A stretch of DNA of 64,000 nucleotides from a virus (Duplodnaviria > Caudoviricetes): the IMG/VR virus record IMGVR_UViG_3300027759_000044; one strand, 5' to 3'. Positions 8,653-61,556 of this stretch are shown here, piece after piece; positions within the stretch are counted from its first letter, which is position 1; every line of letters begins with the position of its first letter. The notes below the pieces were generated by a model. That model was given only the letters and a program-made list of their open reading frames with translations, was not told the origin of the DNA and searched no databases. The translations under genes and the position numbers were made by a program.

Positions 8653-9093
8653 ATGTTATCAGATAATTTAAAAGTACTATTGGCTAGTACACAAAGTTTT
8701 GCTATCAAAACACAAAACTTTCATTGGAACGTGGAGGGAAGTAACTTCCCACAATATCACGATTTCTTTAATACACTGTATGAAGATGTAAATGCTACTA
8801 TTGATCCTATCGCTGAATATATCAGAATACTAGGTCAATATACTCCTGGCAGTTTGTCACGTTATACTGAACTAAGTATTATACAAGACCAAACTAAAGT
8901 TCCAAGAGCAGAACTTATGTTTGTTGAGTTACTACAAAATTGTGAAACAATGTCAGAACTTGTTGTTGCAATGTTTGATGAAGCTACAAATGAACGTCAG
9001 CAGGGTATTGCTAACTACATGGCTGAGTTACAAGACTTATACGGTAAGAAAGCATGGTTCATCCGTTCTACATTAAAAAGAGAACGTGAATGA
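8653..9093 (+). CDS. dps: Dps / ferritin-like DNA protection protein
   Basis: NFHWNVEGSNFPQYHDFF and DPIAEYIR are the Dps ferroxidase-centre motifs. Confidence 0.9.
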   Translation: MLSDNLKVLLASTQSFAIKTQNFHWNVEGSNFPQYHDFFNTLYEDVNATIDPIAEYIRILGQYTPGSLSRYTELSIIQDQTKVPRAELMFVELLQNCETMSELVVAMFDEATNERQQGIANYMAELQDLYGKKAWFIRSTLKRERE

Positions 9094-9722
9094 AAGCACA
9101 AGAGTTTATTATTGAAAATAACGATCAAGCCGCAGTAACTGCTCTGCAAAAAAAGCATGGATGGTCTACGGGTAGAACAGTTAATGGAGATCTCTATTTT
9201 ACCTGGCAAGGACTCGAATATGTGTTTTATGGTGAGCGTATGCGTATCAACGTCCCAAACACTGACCGCTCTATATCAGTTGTGTGGGGCAAAAAACCTG
9301 ATTGGCAAGGCCGAGGCAATGATGAAATCAGTTTTGCACAAGCAGTACAACGAAAAATTCTAAAATTTGACTTGGCAATTTGGCAACAATTGGACCGTGG
9401 CCAAATTAATGATTCACAAGCCCTACAAAAATTCAAGGTAGAAAACGAACGTCAGGCTAGAGAAGCAATTGCACAGGGTGCGACAGAAAGCATCAATGAA
9501 CAAGAAAATTCTAAAGTAGATTTGACACCTAATTATCCTAACTATGAAGTATTAATAGGAGAGTTTGTTGGCATAAGAAAAAATAGAGCAAGATTCTTAA
9601 TTGTAGCATCTGAACTTAAGCCGGGTGTGCGTGAGACTGATAATATATTCAGAGCAAAAACAACTAATACTCCAATCAGTATTGAGATTAGTAAAGTGAA
9701 AAATAGAACAGTAGTAGGATAA
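9090..9722 (+). CDS. Hypothetical protein with MKAxEFIIE leader
   Basis: ATGA overlap with dps. Leader and ATESINE linker match the modular family. Confidence 0.7.
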   Translation: MKAQEFIIENNDQAAVTALQKKHGWSTGRTVNGDLYFTWQGLEYVFYGERMRINVPNTDRSISVVWGKKPDWQGRGNDEISFAQAVQRKILKFDLAIWQQLDRGQINDSQALQKFKVENERQAREAIAQGATESINEQENSKVDLTPNYPNYEVLIGEFVGIRKNRARFLIVASELKPGVRETDNIFRAKTTNTPISIEISKVKNRTVVG

Positions 9723-10165: not shown

Positions 10166-10166
10166 C

Positions 10167-10252
10167 ACACCTTAGGACCGGTACTAGTTACCGTGGTGTA
10201 GGCGGCTTCTGCCTTAAGTTATCCAATTCGCTACTGGACCTTATAAGTGAGC
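10167..10252 (+). ncRNA. Candidate structured RNA (3 stems + possible pseudoknot), unknown class
   Basis: Pairings ACACC/GGTGT, CGGTA/TACCG, AGGCGG/CTGCCT, TAAG/CTTA and TCCA/TGGA, with loop TTCGCT complementary to AGTGAG. GC-rich island in an AT-rich intergenic gap. Confidence 0.45.
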
Positions 10253-10259
10253 ATAAATA
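10253..10259 (+). promoter_or_regulatory. T4-late-like promoter core (leaderless arrangement)
   Basis: ATAAATA 5 nt before ATG 10265. Confidence 0.6.
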
Positions 10260-10264
10260 CTAAT

Positions 10265-11218
10265 ATGAGAGCAATAGAACTATACGAATCAGCCGCAACT
10301 GACCTAGCTAAGAAACTTCCTAGCTTAGAGAAGCACGACTATAATACCATTGACAAGTTAATGAAAAAGATAGCAAAGAAGCATCGTATAACCGGTGATG
10401 CATTACATGATTTATTTGTTAGAAAATATCACAAAACTCCAGACAGTTGGATTAAAGATAAACTAGATGAGGTTGGAGGACGACATTACAACCCGGATGG
10501 TACAACATATCGCGGATCCTATAATAAAATGCCAACATTAAATGATCCTAACGATATTTATAACAGGGCAGAAAGAGTACCATATAAAGATCCGGCTGGT
10601 GAGGAGCCTGCAACAGATGATAGTATTAAACAAATTATTCAAAATGGTTTAGACAGATTAACCGATGACCAACGAAAAGTATTAATTTTAAGATTTTGGT
10701 ATGACATGACATTACAACAGATTGGTGATAGGTTTGACTTGTCTAAAGATAGAATAAGACAAATTGAAGCTAAAGGATTAAGAAGATTACGAGATTCTGC
10801 TAGACATAAAGGATATGATCCCGAGTTATTAAAACCCTATATTACAGAATCTGAACAAGAAGATTTAAATAATAATCCTATTGTAAAGAAGTTTCTTGCT
10901 TGGACAAGTAAGAAGTTAAATTTAGAAAATACTCCAAAGATAGAGTTTAGTTATGATAGTGATGAAGCACAAGAAGGACATCATACTGGTAGACATAATC
11001 CAGAAACAGGTGAAGTATGGGTTTATTGTGCTAATAGAAACTTGGTAGATATCTTACGTACTGTGTTCCACGAATTAGTTCATGTACGTCAAGGCGAATT
11101 AAATATGATTAAGCCGGGTGACAGTTATCCAGGTAGTCCAATAGAAGCAGAAGCAGATGTAATGGCTGGAAAATATATTAAAATATTTGGAAAAGCACAT
11201 CCGGAAATCTTTCAATAA
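10265..11218 (+). CDS. Modular protein: small domain + sigma70 region-4 HTH module + HExxH metallopeptidase-like domain
   Basis: MRAIELYES leader. LTDDQRKVLILRF..MTLQQIG..F.LSKDRIRQIEAKGLRRLR matches sigma region 4. FHELVH..Q followed by EAEAD. Start moved from GTG 10247. Confidence 0.8.
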   Translation: MRAIELYESAATDLAKKLPSLEKHDYNTIDKLMKKIAKKHRITGDALHDLFVRKYHKTPDSWIKDKLDEVGGRHYNPDGTTYRGSYNKMPTLNDPNDIYNRAERVPYKDPAGEEPATDDSIKQIIQNGLDRLTDDQRKVLILRFWYDMTLQQIGDRFDLSKDRIRQIEAKGLRRLRDSARHKGYDPELLKPYITESEQEDLNNNPIVKKFLAWTSKKLNLENTPKIEFSYDSDEAQEGHHTGRHNPETGEVWVYCANRNLVDILRTVFHELVHVRQGELNMIKPGDSYPGSPIEAEADVMAGKYIKIFGKAHPEIFQ

Positions 11219-11228
11219 AGAGTAACAT

Positions 11229-12206
11229 ATGTCAATAACAATTACGGGTGGTATTACAATGTCAGGTGGATTGACAGTTGTACCCAAAATATTTTATTTA
11301 ATAAAAGCTATTTTTATTTTCGGAAACAACAGTGGTACTGCATGTAAAATAACCAACCTAGTATCAGACACCGGTGTAGTGGCTGCTGATATAACATATG
11401 CATCTGCTACTGCTAGATCATACCTTGCGGCAGCAGGTTATGGCAATGATAAAGCTATATTTGGATTTGGCGACCCCATCGCAAGCTCATATTCAGCAAT
11501 AACTAACCTAGTATCAAATACCGGTGTGGTTTCTTCAGATCAGGTTGCGGTCACTGGTACTGGTAGAGATTACCTTACAGCTGCAACTTATGGTGGTGAT
11601 AAAGCTATATTTGGATATGGAAGTACTGGTACATCAACTGCTGTAACTAACCTAGTTTCAAATGCAGGTGTAGTTGCGACTGATACTACAGGTGTTGGTA
11701 CTGCTAGATATGGTTTAGCAGCCGCAAGTTACGGTACTGATAAAGCTATATTTGGATTTGGATATAATAGTTCAACTTTTTACTCGCTAACTAACTTAGT
11801 AAGTAATACAGGTGTAGTTGCGACTGATACTGCTGGTGTTGGTACTGCTAGATTTGGAGTAGGAGCCGCAGGTTATGGCAATGATAAAGCTATATTTGGA
11901 TTTGGACTTACTAGTGGTGGTCCTAGTGCGGTAACATCAATAACCAACTTAGTGTCAAATACAGGTGTGGTTGCTTCAGATCAGGCTGCGCTCACTGGTA
12001 CTGATAGGACGCGCCTTGGCGCCGCAACGTATGGATCTGATAAAGCTATATTTGGATTTGGTGACATTAACAATGGTTCACAAGGAACTATTGGGAGGGC
12101 AATGACCAACTTAGTATCAAATACCGGTGTGGTTGCCGCAGATCAGGCGACAATCACAGGCACTGCCAGATTTGCTCTTGCGGCCGCATCATATTCATCA
12201 GCATAA
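11229..12206 (+). CDS. Six-repeat (about 48-54 aa) kelch-like beta-propeller, probable virion surface protein
   Basis: Six copies of KAIFGFG...TNLVSNTGVVAxD...GTAR..LAAAxY, with a short MSITITGG leader. Confidence 0.7.
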   Translation: MSITITGGITMSGGLTVVPKIFYLIKAIFIFGNNSGTACKITNLVSDTGVVAADITYASATARSYLAAAGYGNDKAIFGFGDPIASSYSAITNLVSNTGVVSSDQVAVTGTGRDYLTAATYGGDKAIFGYGSTGTSTAVTNLVSNAGVVATDTTGVGTARYGLAAASYGTDKAIFGFGYNSSTFYSLTNLVSNTGVVATDTAGVGTARFGVGAAGYGNDKAIFGFGLTSGGPSAVTSITNLVSNTGVVASDQAALTGTDRTRLGAATYGSDKAIFGFGDINNGSQGTIGRAMTNLVSNTGVVAADQATITGTARFALAAASYSSA

Positions 12207-29530: not shown

Positions 29531-30358
29531 ATGAAAAAAGTTTTAATTACAGGATGTTCAGGATATATCGGAAGTCATCTATCTAAGATGTTAGCTAATG
29601 ATTATGAAGTTCATGGCTTAGATATTGATGAACCTCAAGCACCACTAAATGAATTTTATCGTTGTGATATCAATAGACCATTTGTTATTCCAAACGACAT
29701 TGAATATGATAGTGTGATTCATTTAGCGGCATTAGTACGTGTAGGTGAAAGTGAACAAATACCTATCAAATACTATATCACTAATTTGAATGGGACAATG
29801 AATGTTATTAATAAGATAAAGACTAAAAACTTTATCTTTGCTAGTACAGGGGCGGCACAAGATTGTTCTAGTGCTTATGGTATCAGTAAACGTGCCGCCG
29901 AAGATGTTGTTAAAGAATATTGTACACAACACAAAAAACAAGATTATACTATCTTTAGATTCTATAACGTTATAGGAAGTGAAGGTTATGAACCAACTAA
30001 TCCTGATGGATTGATGTATAATCTAATAAAAGCCAGAACTACAAAAGAATTCACAATTTTTGGAGATGATTACAATACAAGTGATGGAACATGTGTACGT
30101 GATTATGTTCATGTAAATGAAATATGTGACGCATTGAAACAATCAATTGAAAAGCCCAGTAATAGTATAGAATGTTTAGGTCACGGTGTCGGAAAAACAG
30201 TAATTGATATTGTCAATATGTTTAAAGAAGTAAACAATATTGATTTTGAAGTTAAAGTGGGCCCAAGAAGAAAGGGTGACATTGAATCTAGTGTACTAGC
30301 TAATGTATCACCCTATATGCGTAATCTATATTATATGGAAGAGTTGTTGAAAGTTTAA
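29531..30358 (+). CDS. NAD-dependent sugar epimerase (GalE-like)
   Basis: VLITGCSGYIG, HLAAL, YGISK, FRFYNV.G, CVRDYVHV and RR.GD. Start moved from 29495. Confidence 0.9.
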   Translation: MKKVLITGCSGYIGSHLSKMLANDYEVHGLDIDEPQAPLNEFYRCDINRPFVIPNDIEYDSVIHLAALVRVGESEQIPIKYYITNLNGTMNVINKIKTKNFIFASTGAAQDCSSAYGISKRAAEDVVKEYCTQHKKQDYTIFRFYNVIGSEGYEPTNPDGLMYNLIKARTTKEFTIFGDDYNTSDGTCVRDYVHVNEICDALKQSIEKPSNSIECLGHGVGKTVIDIVNMFKEVNNIDFEVKVGPRRKGDIESSVLANVSPYMRNLYYMEELLKV

Positions 30359-31029
30359 GCTTGTGCTATTTGACTCATGGGTACACCTATTAGGTCTACT
30401 CCTCGTTTAATATGACTTACAGTTATATCTGTCTGTTGTTTAATGTAGTTGATACGCTCTTTATATCCAGGATGTGTTTTATCACCTAAATCCTCAATTT
30501 TTTCTTTTTTAGTCATATAACCAAATGCTTTATTAGGATCATATCCGGCCTTGTATGCTAGTTTTGCTCCAAATGCATCCGCTAATAATTCATTTTTTCT
30601 ATTTTGTGCGGTGGTCTGATTAGCATATCCATTGTGCTTATAAAATGCATGTCCCATTTCATGTGCAATAGTGTATGCTAATGCATCATCACTTAGATCC
30701 CAAAAAATACTTAGGTCTATTTTGATAACACCGTCTTTGTATGAACCCGCCGACCAAAGTTCTCCTACCTCATATGATAGTTTACCTATCTGTTTAAGCT
30801 GTTCAGGTGTTAACATTGATCTAAGTTTATTATAAACCTGTCCAACACGTACATTTAATCGCTTCCAGCGTTTATCCCACATATCATTAGTTTTAGGGTC
30901 TTTCCAACTATCCCATCTTTGGAACTCTCCTGCTTGTGCGGCAGGCATTGCTGAGCCAATTGCGGCTGCACCTGCACCTCTAAGTAAGTCACGGCGGGTT
31001 ATTTCAGTAATAAACTCATTTGCTCTCAT
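30355..31029 (-). CDS. M48-like zinc metallopeptidase with a Glu leader and Tat-like signal
   Basis: MRANEFITE, then TRRDLL...AQA; IAHEMGH, ELLAD..G and THP...R. Confidence 0.75.
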   Translation of the reverse strand: MRANEFITEITRRDLLRGAGAAAIGSAMPAAQAGEFQRWDSWKDPKTNDMWDKRWKRLNVRVGQVYNKLRSMLTPEQLKQIGKLSYEVGELWSAGSYKDGVIKIDLSIFWDLSDDALAYTIAHEMGHAFYKHNGYANQTTAQNRKNELLADAFGAKLAYKAGYDPNKAFGYMTKKEKIEDLGDKTHPGYKERINYIKQQTDITVSHIKRGVDLIGVPMSQIAQA

Positions 31030-31030
31030 G

Positions 31031-32659
31031 TTAATGCTTCAATAATAAGGTTGACAATACATCTTGTCTATTAGCACTGATATCACCTTCACCCGGAGCA
31101 ATAATAACATTCCATTTCTGTATATTATTCTTTTGTGGAGTAGCCATCATCTCATTGTAATCAATGATGCTATCACGTTTTAAATTATATGCTGCCGCTA
31201 ATCTATCTTTTAATTCTTCTAATGCGGCAGCATCACGTGGTTGCCATGCACCATCAGCAGTTTTATCTAACTTCCCATCCTTATCTTTCTTTAATAAGTC
31301 ATAGAACAATTTACTTGGAACAATACGACTATTCTTAGTTTTATCTAAGTTAGCATCCTGTGCTTTAACTTGTTTCTCTTGGCTAGTACTTGCACCTTCA
31401 CTCCAGTTAATAATGAAGTTATTTGGCTTTTGACCTAATGCCGCATCTGCTATCTTTGTATAAGCATAGAACTTAACATCAGGGTGAGCGGCAGCTAATT
31501 TAAATGCTAGGTCTTGATATTCTGGACTAAAGAAATCACCAGCATCATGCCAACGTATAGTTAGATTATAACCACCTTTTTGTGCCAGTTTTTCTTCTTT
31601 TGTAATTTCATTACTTAATTGATTGAAGAAACCATCTGGATCGTTCAATAAGAAAGTTAGTATTCTTCCGTCACTTAACCAAGGACCTTCAAATTGAACC
31701 TTACCGCCCTTCATAGCGAAACACTCTATTTTACATGAACCAGCACCCGGACATGTATTAACTACTATTAGTTCGTTTGTGCCTTCATCTAGTGCTATAC
31801 CAACTAATGCGGCAAAACCAATATTAAAGAATTGCTCTAGTTCACCGTTACTATGCTTCATTTTCTCATTTTGTTTAAGAAGTTTCTTTGGACGAACACC
31901 CAATGCTGTTTTAATTTGGTCTGTGTCGTATTTCTTACCTTCTTCATTGTAGTATTTTACTACACTTGAGCGATGGATGTAAGGTAGTTTATATTTGTCT
32001 GTTTTACCCTTTTCACGATTACGAATTCTATCTAAGTAATCGTCTAGTTCTTGACCTTTTAGTTCACGTGTTTGTGCTGGTAGTTTGGTTGCTTCGGATA
32101 CTTTTTTGTCATCCCAATCATCATCCCAATCATCATTATTTTTTGGGTGCTGTCCCCAGTCTGTCTGGTTAACTATAGCATATGCAACCTCAGGTGGTAC
32201 ACCTGCTCGTTTAGCAAAAAATTCTTTGTTACCCGGCTCATTAAACCAAGCCCAAAAATCGTTTCCTAGTGATTTATAATAAGTCCACATAAGTTTTTTA
32301 ACTTCACTGAATCTAGGATGTAATGATACTTCACCCTCCAACACACTTTGTTGTTTATGATTTGTAGATTGTTTACTCTGTTTATTACTATCAGGGAACA
32401 TTATGGAAATACTTTTACCATAAGCCTGATCAATTGTCTTAGGATCTATTTTAGATTTATCAGTTCTAGCCTTATGTGTAAACTGTGCTAATTCTTCAGG
32501 GGACATTTTATCTAATTCTTCGGAAGACATTTCATCTATTTGTTCTTCCGGTTCATCACCCGATTGAGCAAGGAATTGATCCATACTCATAACTTTGATG
32601 CCGCCAACCGCACCCGGTAATTTGGGCGTTGCACCCTCAAATAATTCTGTAAAGTTCAT
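31031..32659 (-). CDS. Modular protein with a C-terminal Gp88-like (radical-SAM-like) domain
   Basis: MNFTELFEG leader and IDEM, VLEG and VSEA linkers. TCPGAGSC..ECFA, RWHDAGDF and FYAYTK. Confidence 0.7.
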   Translation of the reverse strand: MNFTELFEGATPKLPGAVGGIKVMSMDQFLAQSGDEPEEQIDEMSSEELDKMSPEELAQFTHKARTDKSKIDPKTIDQAYGKSISIMFPDSNKQSKQSTNHKQQSVLEGEVSLHPRFSEVKKLMWTYYKSLGNDFWAWFNEPGNKEFFAKRAGVPPEVAYAIVNQTDWGQHPKNNDDWDDDWDDKKVSEATKLPAQTRELKGQELDDYLDRIRNREKGKTDKYKLPYIHRSSVVKYYNEEGKKYDTDQIKTALGVRPKKLLKQNEKMKHSNGELEQFFNIGFAALVGIALDEGTNELIVVNTCPGAGSCKIECFAMKGGKVQFEGPWLSDGRILTFLLNDPDGFFNQLSNEITKEEKLAQKGGYNLTIRWHDAGDFFSPEYQDLAFKLAAAHPDVKFYAYTKIADAALGQKPNNFIINWSEGASTSQEKQVKAQDANLDKTKNSRIVPSKLFYDLLKKDKDGKLDKTADGAWQPRDAAALEELKDRLAAAYNLKRDSIIDYNEMMATPQKNNIQKWNVIIAPGEGDISANRQDVLSTLLLKH

Positions 32660-33588
32660 AATATTTCTTTTCTAGCCTTTGCTACCATTTGTTCGGCAAG
32701 CATTAATAATTCTTCCATCTGCTCAATAGATTCACAATTCCATCTACGTAAACTCTTGTTAATGTTACTATTTGGATCTCTTGCTGTTTTAGCACTAGTT
32801 CTACTTTTCTTCATGCCCTTCATTCTAGCACAGAATGATTTACGGCGTTTAGCGGCTTTACTGCCCTTTTTAAGTTTGCTAGGTTTAGTAGTAACTGCTG
32901 TTTGAATCTTGCTACCGGGATGACTACGGCGATAGCTACTTACAGACTTTTTACTCATACCACCTACTCTTGGGTTGTTATGCTTTGACCAAGTCTCACC
33001 TTCATTCAATTCTAAATCGCTATGATTAAACGCAATGTAACTATCTCCGTTCTCATCACCTATTCTAATAACAAATACTCCCGCATCTTCATCACCTGAT
33101 TCATCTTGACCGATATCCCAACCCATTGAAGCTAATGTTTTTTGTGCTTTTGCCATTTGTTGTTCTGTTCCATGCCACCATTGAGCAGCCAGTTGTTTTA
33201 GAATTTCTTCTTCATCTGGCTCATGGTCATCACCATTACTAGGAGCAAATTCATTTAATGATTCGTTTTGTTGCCCAAGTGGAATATTAGCAATATCAGC
33301 TACAGTAATATTAACTAAATTGGTTGTTCCATTTGCTATACGAGCAAAATGTCCTTGGTTGTGTAAATTCATCATTACGTAATACAGATAGTTTGGGTCA
33401 AGAACATCTGTACGTACTACTTTGACACCAATACGTGATGGATCAAATTCTTTAACAGGCTTACCCACTGTCTTATCACTACCTTTACGTATTAACCAAA
33501 AGTCAGCATCCGGCATATTGGTAGCAATTTTTGCTATGTCTTTCAGTCTGGTTCCTGAACTCTCTGATATAATTTCGGTAAATCTCAT
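32656..33588 (-). CDS. Modular protein: HsdS-like module + acidic module + basic C-terminal module
   Basis: MRFTEIISES leader. LDPNYLYY.M....G.F...A.GTT.L.NIT..DI.NIPL resembles an HsdS half. Linkers LNEFAP and LNEG; C-terminal RRKSFCARM..RRWNC. Confidence 0.75.
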   Translation of the reverse strand: MRFTEIISESSGTRLKDIAKIATNMPDADFWLIRKGSDKTVGKPVKEFDPSRIGVKVVRTDVLDPNYLYYVMMNLHNQGHFARIANGTTNLVNITVADIANIPLGQQNESLNEFAPSNGDDHEPDEEEILKQLAAQWWHGTEQQMAKAQKTLASMGWDIGQDESGDEDAGVFVIRIGDENGDSYIAFNHSDLELNEGETWSKHNNPRVGGMSKKSVSSYRRSHPGSKIQTAVTTKPSKLKKGSKAAKRRKSFCARMKGMKKSRTSAKTARDPNSNINKSLRRWNCESIEQMEELLMLAEQMVAKARKEIL

Positions 33589-36875: not shown

Positions 36876-36904
36876 TTGACAATAAAGCCAACCGAGTGTA
36901 TAAT
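36876..36904 (+). promoter_or_regulatory. sigma70-type early promoter
   Basis: TTGACA-N17-TATAAT, perfect consensus. Confidence 0.85.
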
Positions 36905-43383: not shown

Positions 43384-43472
43384 AATGTATTTATGTCAAC
43401 GAAACAGTTGGCTACCGCGTTATATATATGTAGACTATAAAATCTACTTCATTAACTTAAAGGAAACTTAAA

Positions 43473-43733: not shown

Positions 43734-43950
43734 TCCATACCGACTCATAGCAATTAGAACCTGGGGTCTTGATCCTAATAAGGTTCTAGTTGATGATGAG
43801 GACATATTAGTTAATTCCCGTCGTATTATACTAAAGATTGAAACCTCTTTAGATATCAATGAGGACTTAACTGATTATGTTCAGTTGAGATTGTTTCTGG
43901 CCAGAGAAATGGCTATGTCAAAATATAGAGAAATCTATCAACCGGCATAA
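43663..43950 (+). CDS. Hypothetical protein, true start uncertain
   Basis: Fills the gap 43734-43950, but the annotated start overlaps the upstream gene. Confidence 0.35.
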   Translation: MMPKLLVQHQQKLTIKKPKLLRSNPYRLIAIRTWGLDPNKVLVDDEDILVNSRRIILKIETSLDINEDLTDYVQLRLFLAREMAMSKYREIYQPA

Positions 43951-44016
43951 ATATATATGAAGTTACGGGTTCTTCATAAAAACCTAACTTTTAAACACAC
44001 ACATAGGAGATATAAA

Positions 44017-52620: not shown

Positions 52621-52829
52621 ACGCATATACTTTAGTAGGTCAATCTTATGTATTTGAAGATGGCAACAGGATTGAAGTAATACAGGTAAAAAAGACTGAT
52701 GAGGATCGTGGTGATTATTTAGTTACATATCACGTTACTCACGGTCCTGGTATTCCTCAAAAGCTAGTTTTACCTGTAGCTGAATTTCTTAGTTATTATA
52801 GTCACTTATTTGACGTTAGTATAGACTAA
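52617..52829 (+). CDS. Small hypothetical protein
   Basis: ATGA-coupled. Confidence 0.65.
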   Translation: MNAYTLVGQSYVFEDGNRIEVIQVKKTDEDRGDYLVTYHVTHGPGIPQKLVLPVAEFLSYYSHLFDVSID

Positions 52830-52836
52830 ATATTAG

Positions 52837-61458: not shown

Positions 61459-61556
61459 TTAATTTCTCCTAAACATATATTTAATCACGGACATTAAAAC
61501 GGTTATTTTTCCTAATATATTGTTACATTGCATGGCCCTGCTACAATAAATACATT

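Follow-up and report, generated by a model that had tools for sequence, protein, structure and literature searches.

The gene described here lies at positions 10265–11218 (plus strand) of a 64,000-nucleotide stretch of viral DNA, referred to as the window (IMG/VR record IMGVR_UViG_3300027759_000044; Duplodnaviria, Caudoviricetes), and encodes a protein of three modules, the central one being a copy of domain 4 of a bacterial sigma factor. It starts with an ATG and gives 317 amino acids (aa), and an upstream GTG at 10247 would give 323 aa. The listed database homologues begin at that ATG (MRAIELYE), and close relatives are 317 aa long as well; residue numbers follow the 323-aa reading throughout. 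Its parts stand in the following order: a leader similar to the capsid-targeting sequence (CTS) of phage T4 (10265–10288, MRAIELYE and then S), a helical N-terminal domain (10289–10471), L-D-E, the sigma-4 module, which is an insert of 126 aa (10472–10849), I-T-E, and a C-terminal minimal zincin domain (10850–11215) with HELVH at 11069–11083. The leader was assigned from its likeness to the start of T4 IPII and IPIII and from the relatives, the four-helix N-domain, ending in an invariant K-L-D-E with E75 as its invariant glutamate, from the AlphaFold helices, the module from protein alignment, DNA junctions and synteny, and the zincin domain from its fold. An AlphaFold model built from 49 homologues divides the 323-aa protein into a helical N-domain (residues 4–68), a disordered part (residues 72–123, predicted local distance difference test (pLDDT) below 40), a confident sigma-4 fold (residues 125–188, pLDDT 83–89) and a C-terminal α/β domain with the HELVH motif.

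The phage itself is a T4-like jumbo (giant) lake phage with a family B DNA polymerase and a gp23-type capsid. Among cultured jumbo phages, the best matches to the DNA polymerase of the window come from Phosso, Atu_ph07, Vibrio 2.275.O, RaK2 and CBB (42–48% identity), and none of the cultured phages is close at the DNA level. The cultured-phage collection contained no full-length relative of the three-module protein, only separate matches to each of its three parts. Genome-wide results (protease, late sigma and capsid genes) were read in a proxy instead of the window, namely the IMG/VR contig G001 (locus L004; 348,701 bases, rated complete), which carries an orthologue of 96% identity with the same neighbours.

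The sequence-only reading of the window had claimed a sigma-70 region 4 of about 50 aa with regions 2 and 3 missing, and had proposed a search with the Sigma70_r4 hidden Markov model. This search matched residues 135–182 (10649–10792) with E = 3.6e-18 and 65.2 bits (cut-off 24.1), Sigma70_r4_2 matched the sigma part as well (E = 1.8e-6), the motif LSKDRIRQIEAKGLRRLR is present, and the Pfam scan of the protein gave no match to sigma region 2 or 3. The claim was thus right about region 4 but too small in size, as the domain comprises about 80 aa and the inserted unit 126 aa. PHROG sigma-factor families match the sigma part, and residues 111–199 align by sequence with the solved chains of RpoD, SigA and RpoS. 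Residues 125–188 of the model superpose on 8jzt_A with a root-mean-square deviation (rmsd) of 1.5 Å over 55 columns (TM 0.86), and also on the solved sigma-4 domains 3hug and 3t72. A Foldseek search of the PDB with the whole model returned nothing at E ≤ 0.001, and matches to the other domains came from a search at domain level. According to the alignment with E. coli RpoD (reference taken from L084), a complete sigma domain 4 with regions 4.1 and 4.2 and the C-terminal helix H5 is encoded at 10610–10849, corresponding to residues 535–613 of E. coli sigma70 and ending at the same last residue. The window copy keeps the equivalents of R586, R588, Q589, E591, K593, R596, L598 and R599 and includes those of L607, R608 and F610 in H5, the flap-binding tail being present; R584 is replaced by Lys, E585 by Asp, and residues 565–568 are deleted. 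The sigma part is therefore confirmed as an RpoD-type region 4 without regions 2–3, with an identity far beyond chance, and the module is complete and maintained, reproducing the C-terminal domain found in sigma factors of the primary type. The label ‘sigma factor’ that JGI gives to homologues is misleading, because the underlying model TIGR02937 (51.4 bits, cut-off 42.9) is matched over its region-4 end only (model positions 89–163 of 165). In G001 Sigma70_r4 was matched once, by the orthologue of the three-module gene; no Sigma70_r2 match lay above the cut-off (best 11 bits) and no AsiA match was found.

The best NCBIfam match of the protein is to the last 100 positions of the model for MzaA (E = 3.9e-18, 65.7 bits), which could point to a counter-defence decoy, a module that mimics region 4 of a sigma-like defence protein such as MzaA of the MZA system, or of a host sigma, and thereby soaks up a host factor. 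This score is far under the model cut-off of 800, however, and the PADLOC model of MzaA gave only 30 bits and preferred a more RpoD-like module. The match is therefore generic, and a specific relation to MzaA was rejected, since the similarity reflects RpoD-type region 4 in general. As no defence genes are linked to the module either, we consider such a decoy very improbable. The related suggestion that a released fragment might act as a decoy for anti-sigma factors lacks specific support.

To the question whether relatives lack the module, which had been raised together with the region-4 claim, near-identical phages give a direct answer. A search of a large protein collection yielded about 30 clusters of full-length relatives with 80–98% identity and three with about 50%, together with more than 1000 homologues of 191–194 aa that match the N- and C-domains only. 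In the alignment these short forms drop residues 76–201 cleanly, and one of them (P0031) is 94% identical outside the gap. At the DNA level the locus L012 reads GATGAG AGT GAA CAA and the window GATGAG|GTT GGA...ACA GAA|TCT GAA CAA, so the insert begins directly after L-D-E and closes with I-T-E; the junctions show no flanking DNA repeat. The gene order is conserved, with ferritin-like protein, ORF210, SNase, the three-module gene, a variable number of repeat-protein copies, PP-loop protein, ORF88 and DNA polymerase. The insert is absent from the syntenic loci L012 and L009, whose DNA polymerase is 97.5% identical to that of the window, and a single sample yielded both L004 with the insert and L019 without it. 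Among 81 homologous open reading frames (ORFs) in the fetched loci, 9 have the N-module-C arrangement, 69 are N-C and 3 consist of the C-domain only. The same linker takes up other inserts as well, with 195 aa in L024, 96 aa in L026 and 27–33 aa in L048, L052 and L063, and in P0058 the module lies near the N-terminus and the first helix is partly duplicated. The 27–33 aa inserts read QQMS...GLRKVRPRHV...LSE and may be the two ends of an internally deleted sigma-4 module. Taken together, the sigma-4 module seems to be a mobile in-frame cassette composed of a disordered phage-specific extension and a complete sigma domain 4.

Presence and absence among near-identical phages, the possible deletion remnants at the same site and a variable recognition helix would also fit a passenger, a cassette that was spread by shuffling, does little or nothing for the three-module protein and is being lost. 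Against this stands the ratio of nonsynonymous to synonymous substitution rates (dN/dS) of the sigma-4 part, which is 0.05–0.28 for the window versus L004, L005 and L007 and similar to that of the flanking domains, so that the sigma-4 part is under purifying selection. Moreover, the module is kept at the same site in lineages that are only about 50% identical (L008), and its family conserves R586, R588, Q589, E591, R596 and the H5 helix. A mere passenger is thus highly doubtful.

In order to see how far the module extends beyond this gene, a 127-aa module sequence was compared with 1.84 billion cluster representatives, giving 4,911 matches, and most of the top-ranked ones also span the disordered extension. 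This extension (10472–10609; pLDDT 34–39), which contains YNPDGTTYRG and KMPTLNDPNDIY in the window, is conserved, matches no Pfam family and is without a known counterpart. The full pattern was found in 54 representatives and consists of hydrophobic-x-E|A-N-P-N-Q-Q-x-x-L-Y-N-P-D-G-x-T-Y-R-G...K-M-P-T-L-D-P, an acidic variable stretch and the sigma-4 domain. Nearly all representatives that possess the N(P/I)NQQ start have hydrophobic-x-E directly before it; the window's own copy of the module has lost this start. Proteins with the module range from 123 to 1,215 aa and carry it at the N-terminus, in the centre or at the C-terminus, and its partners elsewhere include ART-PolyVal (P0139, E = 3.2e-22, directly upstream), ParB_N, a cytidylyltransferase-like domain and DUF5872. 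Stand-alone sigma-4 forms of 123–153 aa start with the leader alone (MRIIEILE|ANPNQQ, MRAKEFIVE|ANPKQQ, MKINEILTE|ANPRQQ), and the end of their leader is exactly the point at which the module starts in the fusions. Within the 54 representatives the equivalents of R586 (44), R588 (37), Q589 (45), E591 (49), R596 (51) and R562 (47) are conserved, together with L607, R608 and F/Y610 in H5. What is new here is a module made of region 4 only, the exact points at which it is inserted, the fact that some near-identical phages have it and others do not, and the size of the family with its conserved extension; no description of sigma-4-only phage cargo was found in the literature searched, to which this negative is limited.

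The 191-aa parent form, made up of the two domains that flank the module, is modelled with a mean pLDDT of 81. The C-domain consists of a helix, three strands, the HExxH helix and a Glu-bearing helix, and H275, E276, H279, E300 and D304 are invariant. It had been noted that the module is flanked by LDEV and ITES and followed by an HExxH peptidase, and these lie at residues 73–76, 199–202 and 275–279 (HELVH), the last within a domain that the model shows as a clear zincin fold. Its best structural matches are SPRTN (6mdx, Z 8.7), Wss1 (5xbn, Z 8.6), AQ_1354 (Z 8.5), selecase (Z 7.8) and ArdC (6sna, Z 6.3), and its matches in the BFVD library of viral models are IrrE-N-like and SprT-like phage proteins (E = 3.8e-8), which occur both stand-alone and within proteins of 650–1,140 aa. 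No Pfam or NCBIfam family matched the C-domain. The N-domain resembles AraC-type helix-turn-helix (HTH) half-domains (1u8b, Z 8.8, rmsd 1.8, 62 residues), a similarity that is not decisive for such a small helical bundle. In cultured cyanophages the C-domain occurs as a stand-alone protein of 132 aa (S-SRM01), and an N-domain-like stretch is found inside a protein annotated as tail fibre (MA01). At two loci, L075:7433–8351 and L076:7463–8351, a cytidine/dCMP-deaminase-like module (HAE...PC..C) takes the place of the N-domain and is fused to the same zincin.

The resemblance of the zincin to DNA-dependent proteases, its invariant metal and catalytic residues and the HTH-like N-domain might suggest that the protein stays uncut and that the sigma-4 arm guides a SprT/Wss1-like zincin to the flap of RNA polymerase or to promoter DNA in order to cut a host protein there, comparable to the DNA-binding domains that accompany the proteases SPRTN, Wss1 and ArdC. 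The module, however, is common without the zincin, either stand-alone or together with dozens of unrelated partners, and the linker accepts unrelated inserts of 27–195 aa, which argues against a specific coupling of sigma-4 and zincin; moreover the N-domain can be exchanged for the deaminase-like module, and both borders of the module carry motifs of the cut type. We therefore regard an uncut guide-and-protease protein as unlikely.

These motifs are the same throughout the gene family, in which every module border is a hydrophobic-x-E, with the triplets LDE, ITE, INE, ATE, FNE, IPE, IKE, LNE, LGE, VAE, LSE and IAE; QGVAEG linkers occur at module borders, also in relatives of the sigma-4 module. 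The window protein contains [LIVMF]-x-E four times (LYE14, LDE75, ITE201 and the catalytic FHE276), which is no significant depletion against 5.4 expected, so the informative feature is not the count but the placement of three of them, one closing the leader and one at either border of the module. T4 IPII and IPIII start with MKTYQEFIAE|A, the window protein starts with MRAIELYE|S and its relatives with MRLKEFITE|S, MRAIEFLSE|S or MKQNQFILE|S. A hydrophobic-x-E-[S/A] inside the first 12 aa was found in 115 of 120 family members, and the strict leader pattern occurs in four of the 70 window ORFs of at least 90 aa (9090, 10265, 30355 and 32656, the last two on the minus strand) versus none of 440 internal Met positions. 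In T4 the protease gp21 recognizes L/I-x-E and cleaves behind the Glu; for capsid targeting of IPIII its first ten residues are enough, and processing is governed by residues 8 and 10 (PMC9026906). Among the genes of G001 is one for a prohead protease of the T4 type (Peptidase_S77, E = 1.7e-28), next to genes for a gp22-like scaffold and a gp23-like capsid protein, and this capsid protein has LLAE|SSAG just before the conserved core, which fits the same protease specificity as the module borders.

Two further genes of the window have T4-CTS-like starts, 9090–9722 (MKAQEFIIE) and 32656–33588 on the minus strand (MRFTEIISE), and the N-terminal module of the latter is shared with sigma-4-bearing polyproteins such as P0127. 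An odd pairing was seen in ORF 30355–31029 (minus strand), where a CTS-like leader runs directly into a signal of the twin-arginine type (MRANEFITE ITRRDLLRGAGAAAIGSAMPA).

Packaging into a capsid would need late expression of the gene. A ATAAATAC motif lies at 10253–10260 on the plus strand, 4 nucleotides (nt) 5' of the ATG, and is conserved upstream of the orthologues. The T4 late promoter has the sequence TATAAATA, which the motif resembles. TAAATA was found not more than 22 nt before the ATG of seven out of 78 window ORFs where about 0.8 would be expected, six of the seven at a spacing of 4–5 nt, and motifs of the ATAAATAC type stand 4–5 nt before the ATG of six genes (1951–1958, 10253–10260, 43388–43395 on the minus strand, 43947–43952, 52825–52830 and 61547–61554). 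The motif is a candidate T4-type late promoter of the three-module gene and, if it is one, the gene would be late; if this applies to the other motifs too, the respective mRNAs would be leaderless or nearly so. Scans for sigma-70-type promoters and terminators around the gene stayed at chance level.

A second type of promoter is present at 36876, 37159, 39230, 46799, 47198 and 54367, all on the plus strand and all intergenic, each consisting of TTGACAATAAA, or a variant differing from it in one base, followed after a spacer of 17 nt by TGnTATAAT or a close variant. The TGn is present at five of these six sites and the exact 11-mer at four, in agreement with the extended TTGACAATAAA phage promoters noticed before, of which four exact intergenic copies each have a -10 of the TGn-TATAAT type. 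From their sequence they are probably the early promoters of the phage and resemble those of T4, which have redundant elements and are rather insensitive to a lost -35 contact (PMC2988021).

From these data we propose that the gene product is a small multi-module precursor of the kind of the T4 internal proteins or the ‘polyvalent proteins’, made late as capsid cargo and cut into three modules, and that the freed sigma-4 mimic competes for the flap of RNA polymerase and for -35 DNA. For this reading as a whole we would give a probability of roughly 45%. After late transcription the leader would load the precursor into the prohead, where the T4-type prohead protease, or possibly its own zincin, would cleave behind the Glu of the leader and of each module border, and the pieces would pass into the next host cell together with the DNA. 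There the free sigma-4 mimic would rival the host sigma's own region 4 for the β-flap tip, for -35 DNA and for proteins docking to region 4, among them activators binding the K593–R599 patch. Promoters depending on a -35 element would be weakened and the phage early promoters with their TGn extended -10 would be less sensitive; the odds are against this last step, a free region-4 copy that hits host promoters harder than the TTGACAATAAA promoters of the phage. A precedent is Alt, a T4 head protein which is injected and modifies RNA polymerase (PMC2988021, PMC9026906), and for polyvalent proteins with a zincin peptidase, in which ART and ParB are typical, delivery with the DNA and release by proteolysis have been proposed (PMC5512222). 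Of the earlier interpretation, the following is supported: the RpoD-type region 4 as a separable module, the LDE/ITE borders, the T4-CTS-like leader, the zincin and the promoters.

Several points weigh against this proposal. We infer packaging, cleavage, release and the binding to RNA polymerase or DNA from short sequence motifs. Isolated sigma-4 domains generally bind flap and DNA weakly. The equivalent of R584 is Arg in only 12 of the 54 representatives and the recognition helix varies among close homologues (KDRIRQ, TARIAQ, ETWIRH, APYITH); with such variable -35 recognition residues, a strict reading of TTGACA is not a conserved property of the module. The module is dispensable in close relatives, the 27–33 aa inserts may be its deleted remains, and the zincin homologue of the cultured phage S-SRM01 (132 aa) is without such a leader. 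The gene is also located among genes for replication and nucleotide metabolism (Dps/ferritin-like, SNase, PP-loop, DNA polymerase) and not among head genes. The ip genes of T4 likewise lie outside the head cluster.

The replication-gene neighbours would also suit an ordinary intracellular regulator that is never packaged. By binding DNA or RNA polymerase, its sigma-4 part would repress, serve as an appropriator or pair with a gp55-like late sigma, and leader and borders would have nothing to do with the capsid. Stand-alone proteins with only Sigma70_r4 form clusters in viruses and bacteria, ‘minimal’ sigma factors with a single HTH are mentioned for group 2 jumbo phages in a published survey (PMC7824862), and the related genome G001 encodes a gp55-like late sigma whose gene is without region 4. 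This explanation leaves the T4-CTS-like leader, the uniform rule at the borders and the partners ART-PolyVal and ParB unexplained. A split sigma together with gp55 was also rejected and counts against it, as TTGAC, 14–21 nt and TAAATA in succession are not enriched (2 versus 1.26 expected); TTGACA abutting TAAATA occurs once versus 0.18 expected, which is not significant. An unpackaged regulator thus seems improbable to us. The gp55-like sigma itself (L087, G001:87076–87318) belongs to a 309-aa open frame; T4 gp55, with 185 aa, is far shorter.

The intergenic region between the SNase gene and the three-module gene contains a conserved, G+C-richer element (10166–10252, plus strand) that is common to about 25 related loci. 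It comprises the block CCTTAGGACC, a hairpin around CGGCTGCTG whose stem shows changes in both of its strands, and the blocks ATTCGCTACC and AAGTGAGCA. It matches no Rfam family and possibly acts as a structured RNA or in 5' regulation. On the other side the gene adjoins one for a Gly/Thr-rich repeat protein (11229–12206; units of the type TNLVSNTGVV...). In related loci the number of its tandem gene copies ranges from one to about six, and they are found to either side of the three-module gene.

If the proposal is true, this would be the first sigma-domain mimic acting as an injected effector, with a family in more than 50 protein clusters. The phage routes to RNA polymerase known so far are the small binders AsiA, gp33, gp39 and p7 and one injected enzyme, T4 Alt, so that the promoter-recognition and flap-binding domain of sigma as cargo would be a new way to redirect RNA polymerase. 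It might even be that many uncultured T4-like phages package and inject a region-4 copy with a phage-specific extension and thereby blunt or reprogram the host RNA polymerase before phage gene expression, a generalization from sequence that we find doubtful at present. The module is in any case a defined protein of 125 aa for tests with RNA polymerase, close phages with and without it offer a ready comparison, and its clean in-frame insertion with protease-motif borders illustrates how modules are gained and lost in cargo proteins.

Compared with known systems, the protein shares with T4 IPI, IPII, IPIII and Alt a short N-terminal leader of the E-F-I-x-E type ending in hydrophobic-x-Glu and, in a near-identical genome, the T4-type prohead protease. 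The T4 internal proteins are also a diverse and fast-changing cargo, with Alt as precedent for an injected protein acting on RNA polymerase. In contrast to them, several modules are joined in a chain here, with additional motifs of the cut type at their borders, and a sigma-domain cargo has not been described for T4-like phages. Polyvalent proteins (PMC5512222) are similar in their multi-domain structure and in their free domain shuffling; their hub is a zincin-like metallopeptidase, to which the zincin of the window protein may correspond, and ART-PolyVal and ParB_N stand beside sigma-4 in relatives. The window protein is much smaller (317 aa), however, and contains neither ART-PolyVal nor ParB_N; its zincin domain does not match Pfam MPTase-PolyVal even at E up to 10, and the word ‘sigma’ is absent from the main text of that paper. 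The zincins of SprT, Wss1 and SPRTN, of the ArdC C-terminus and of IrrE-N-like proteins share the fold, HExxH and the downstream Glu-bearing helix, but the resemblance is at the level of the fold and not of a sequence family. The minimal sigma factors of group 2 jumbo phages come from the same broad phage group and are likewise reduced to one HTH, but by that paper (PMC7824862) they are treated as real sigma factors and not as cargo. With region 4 of sigma70 the module shares the fold, 40–45% identity and the residues named above including H5; unlike sigma70 it is without regions 1–3 and so unable to act as an initiation factor, and it carries an added phage-specific extension of 50 aa. AsiA and gp33 of T4, gp39 of a Thermus phage and p7 of Xp10 would share with it the same interface of RNA polymerase as target and a shift in promoter preference, but they use unrelated folds to bind region 4 or the flap, whereas the module is a copy of region 4 itself.

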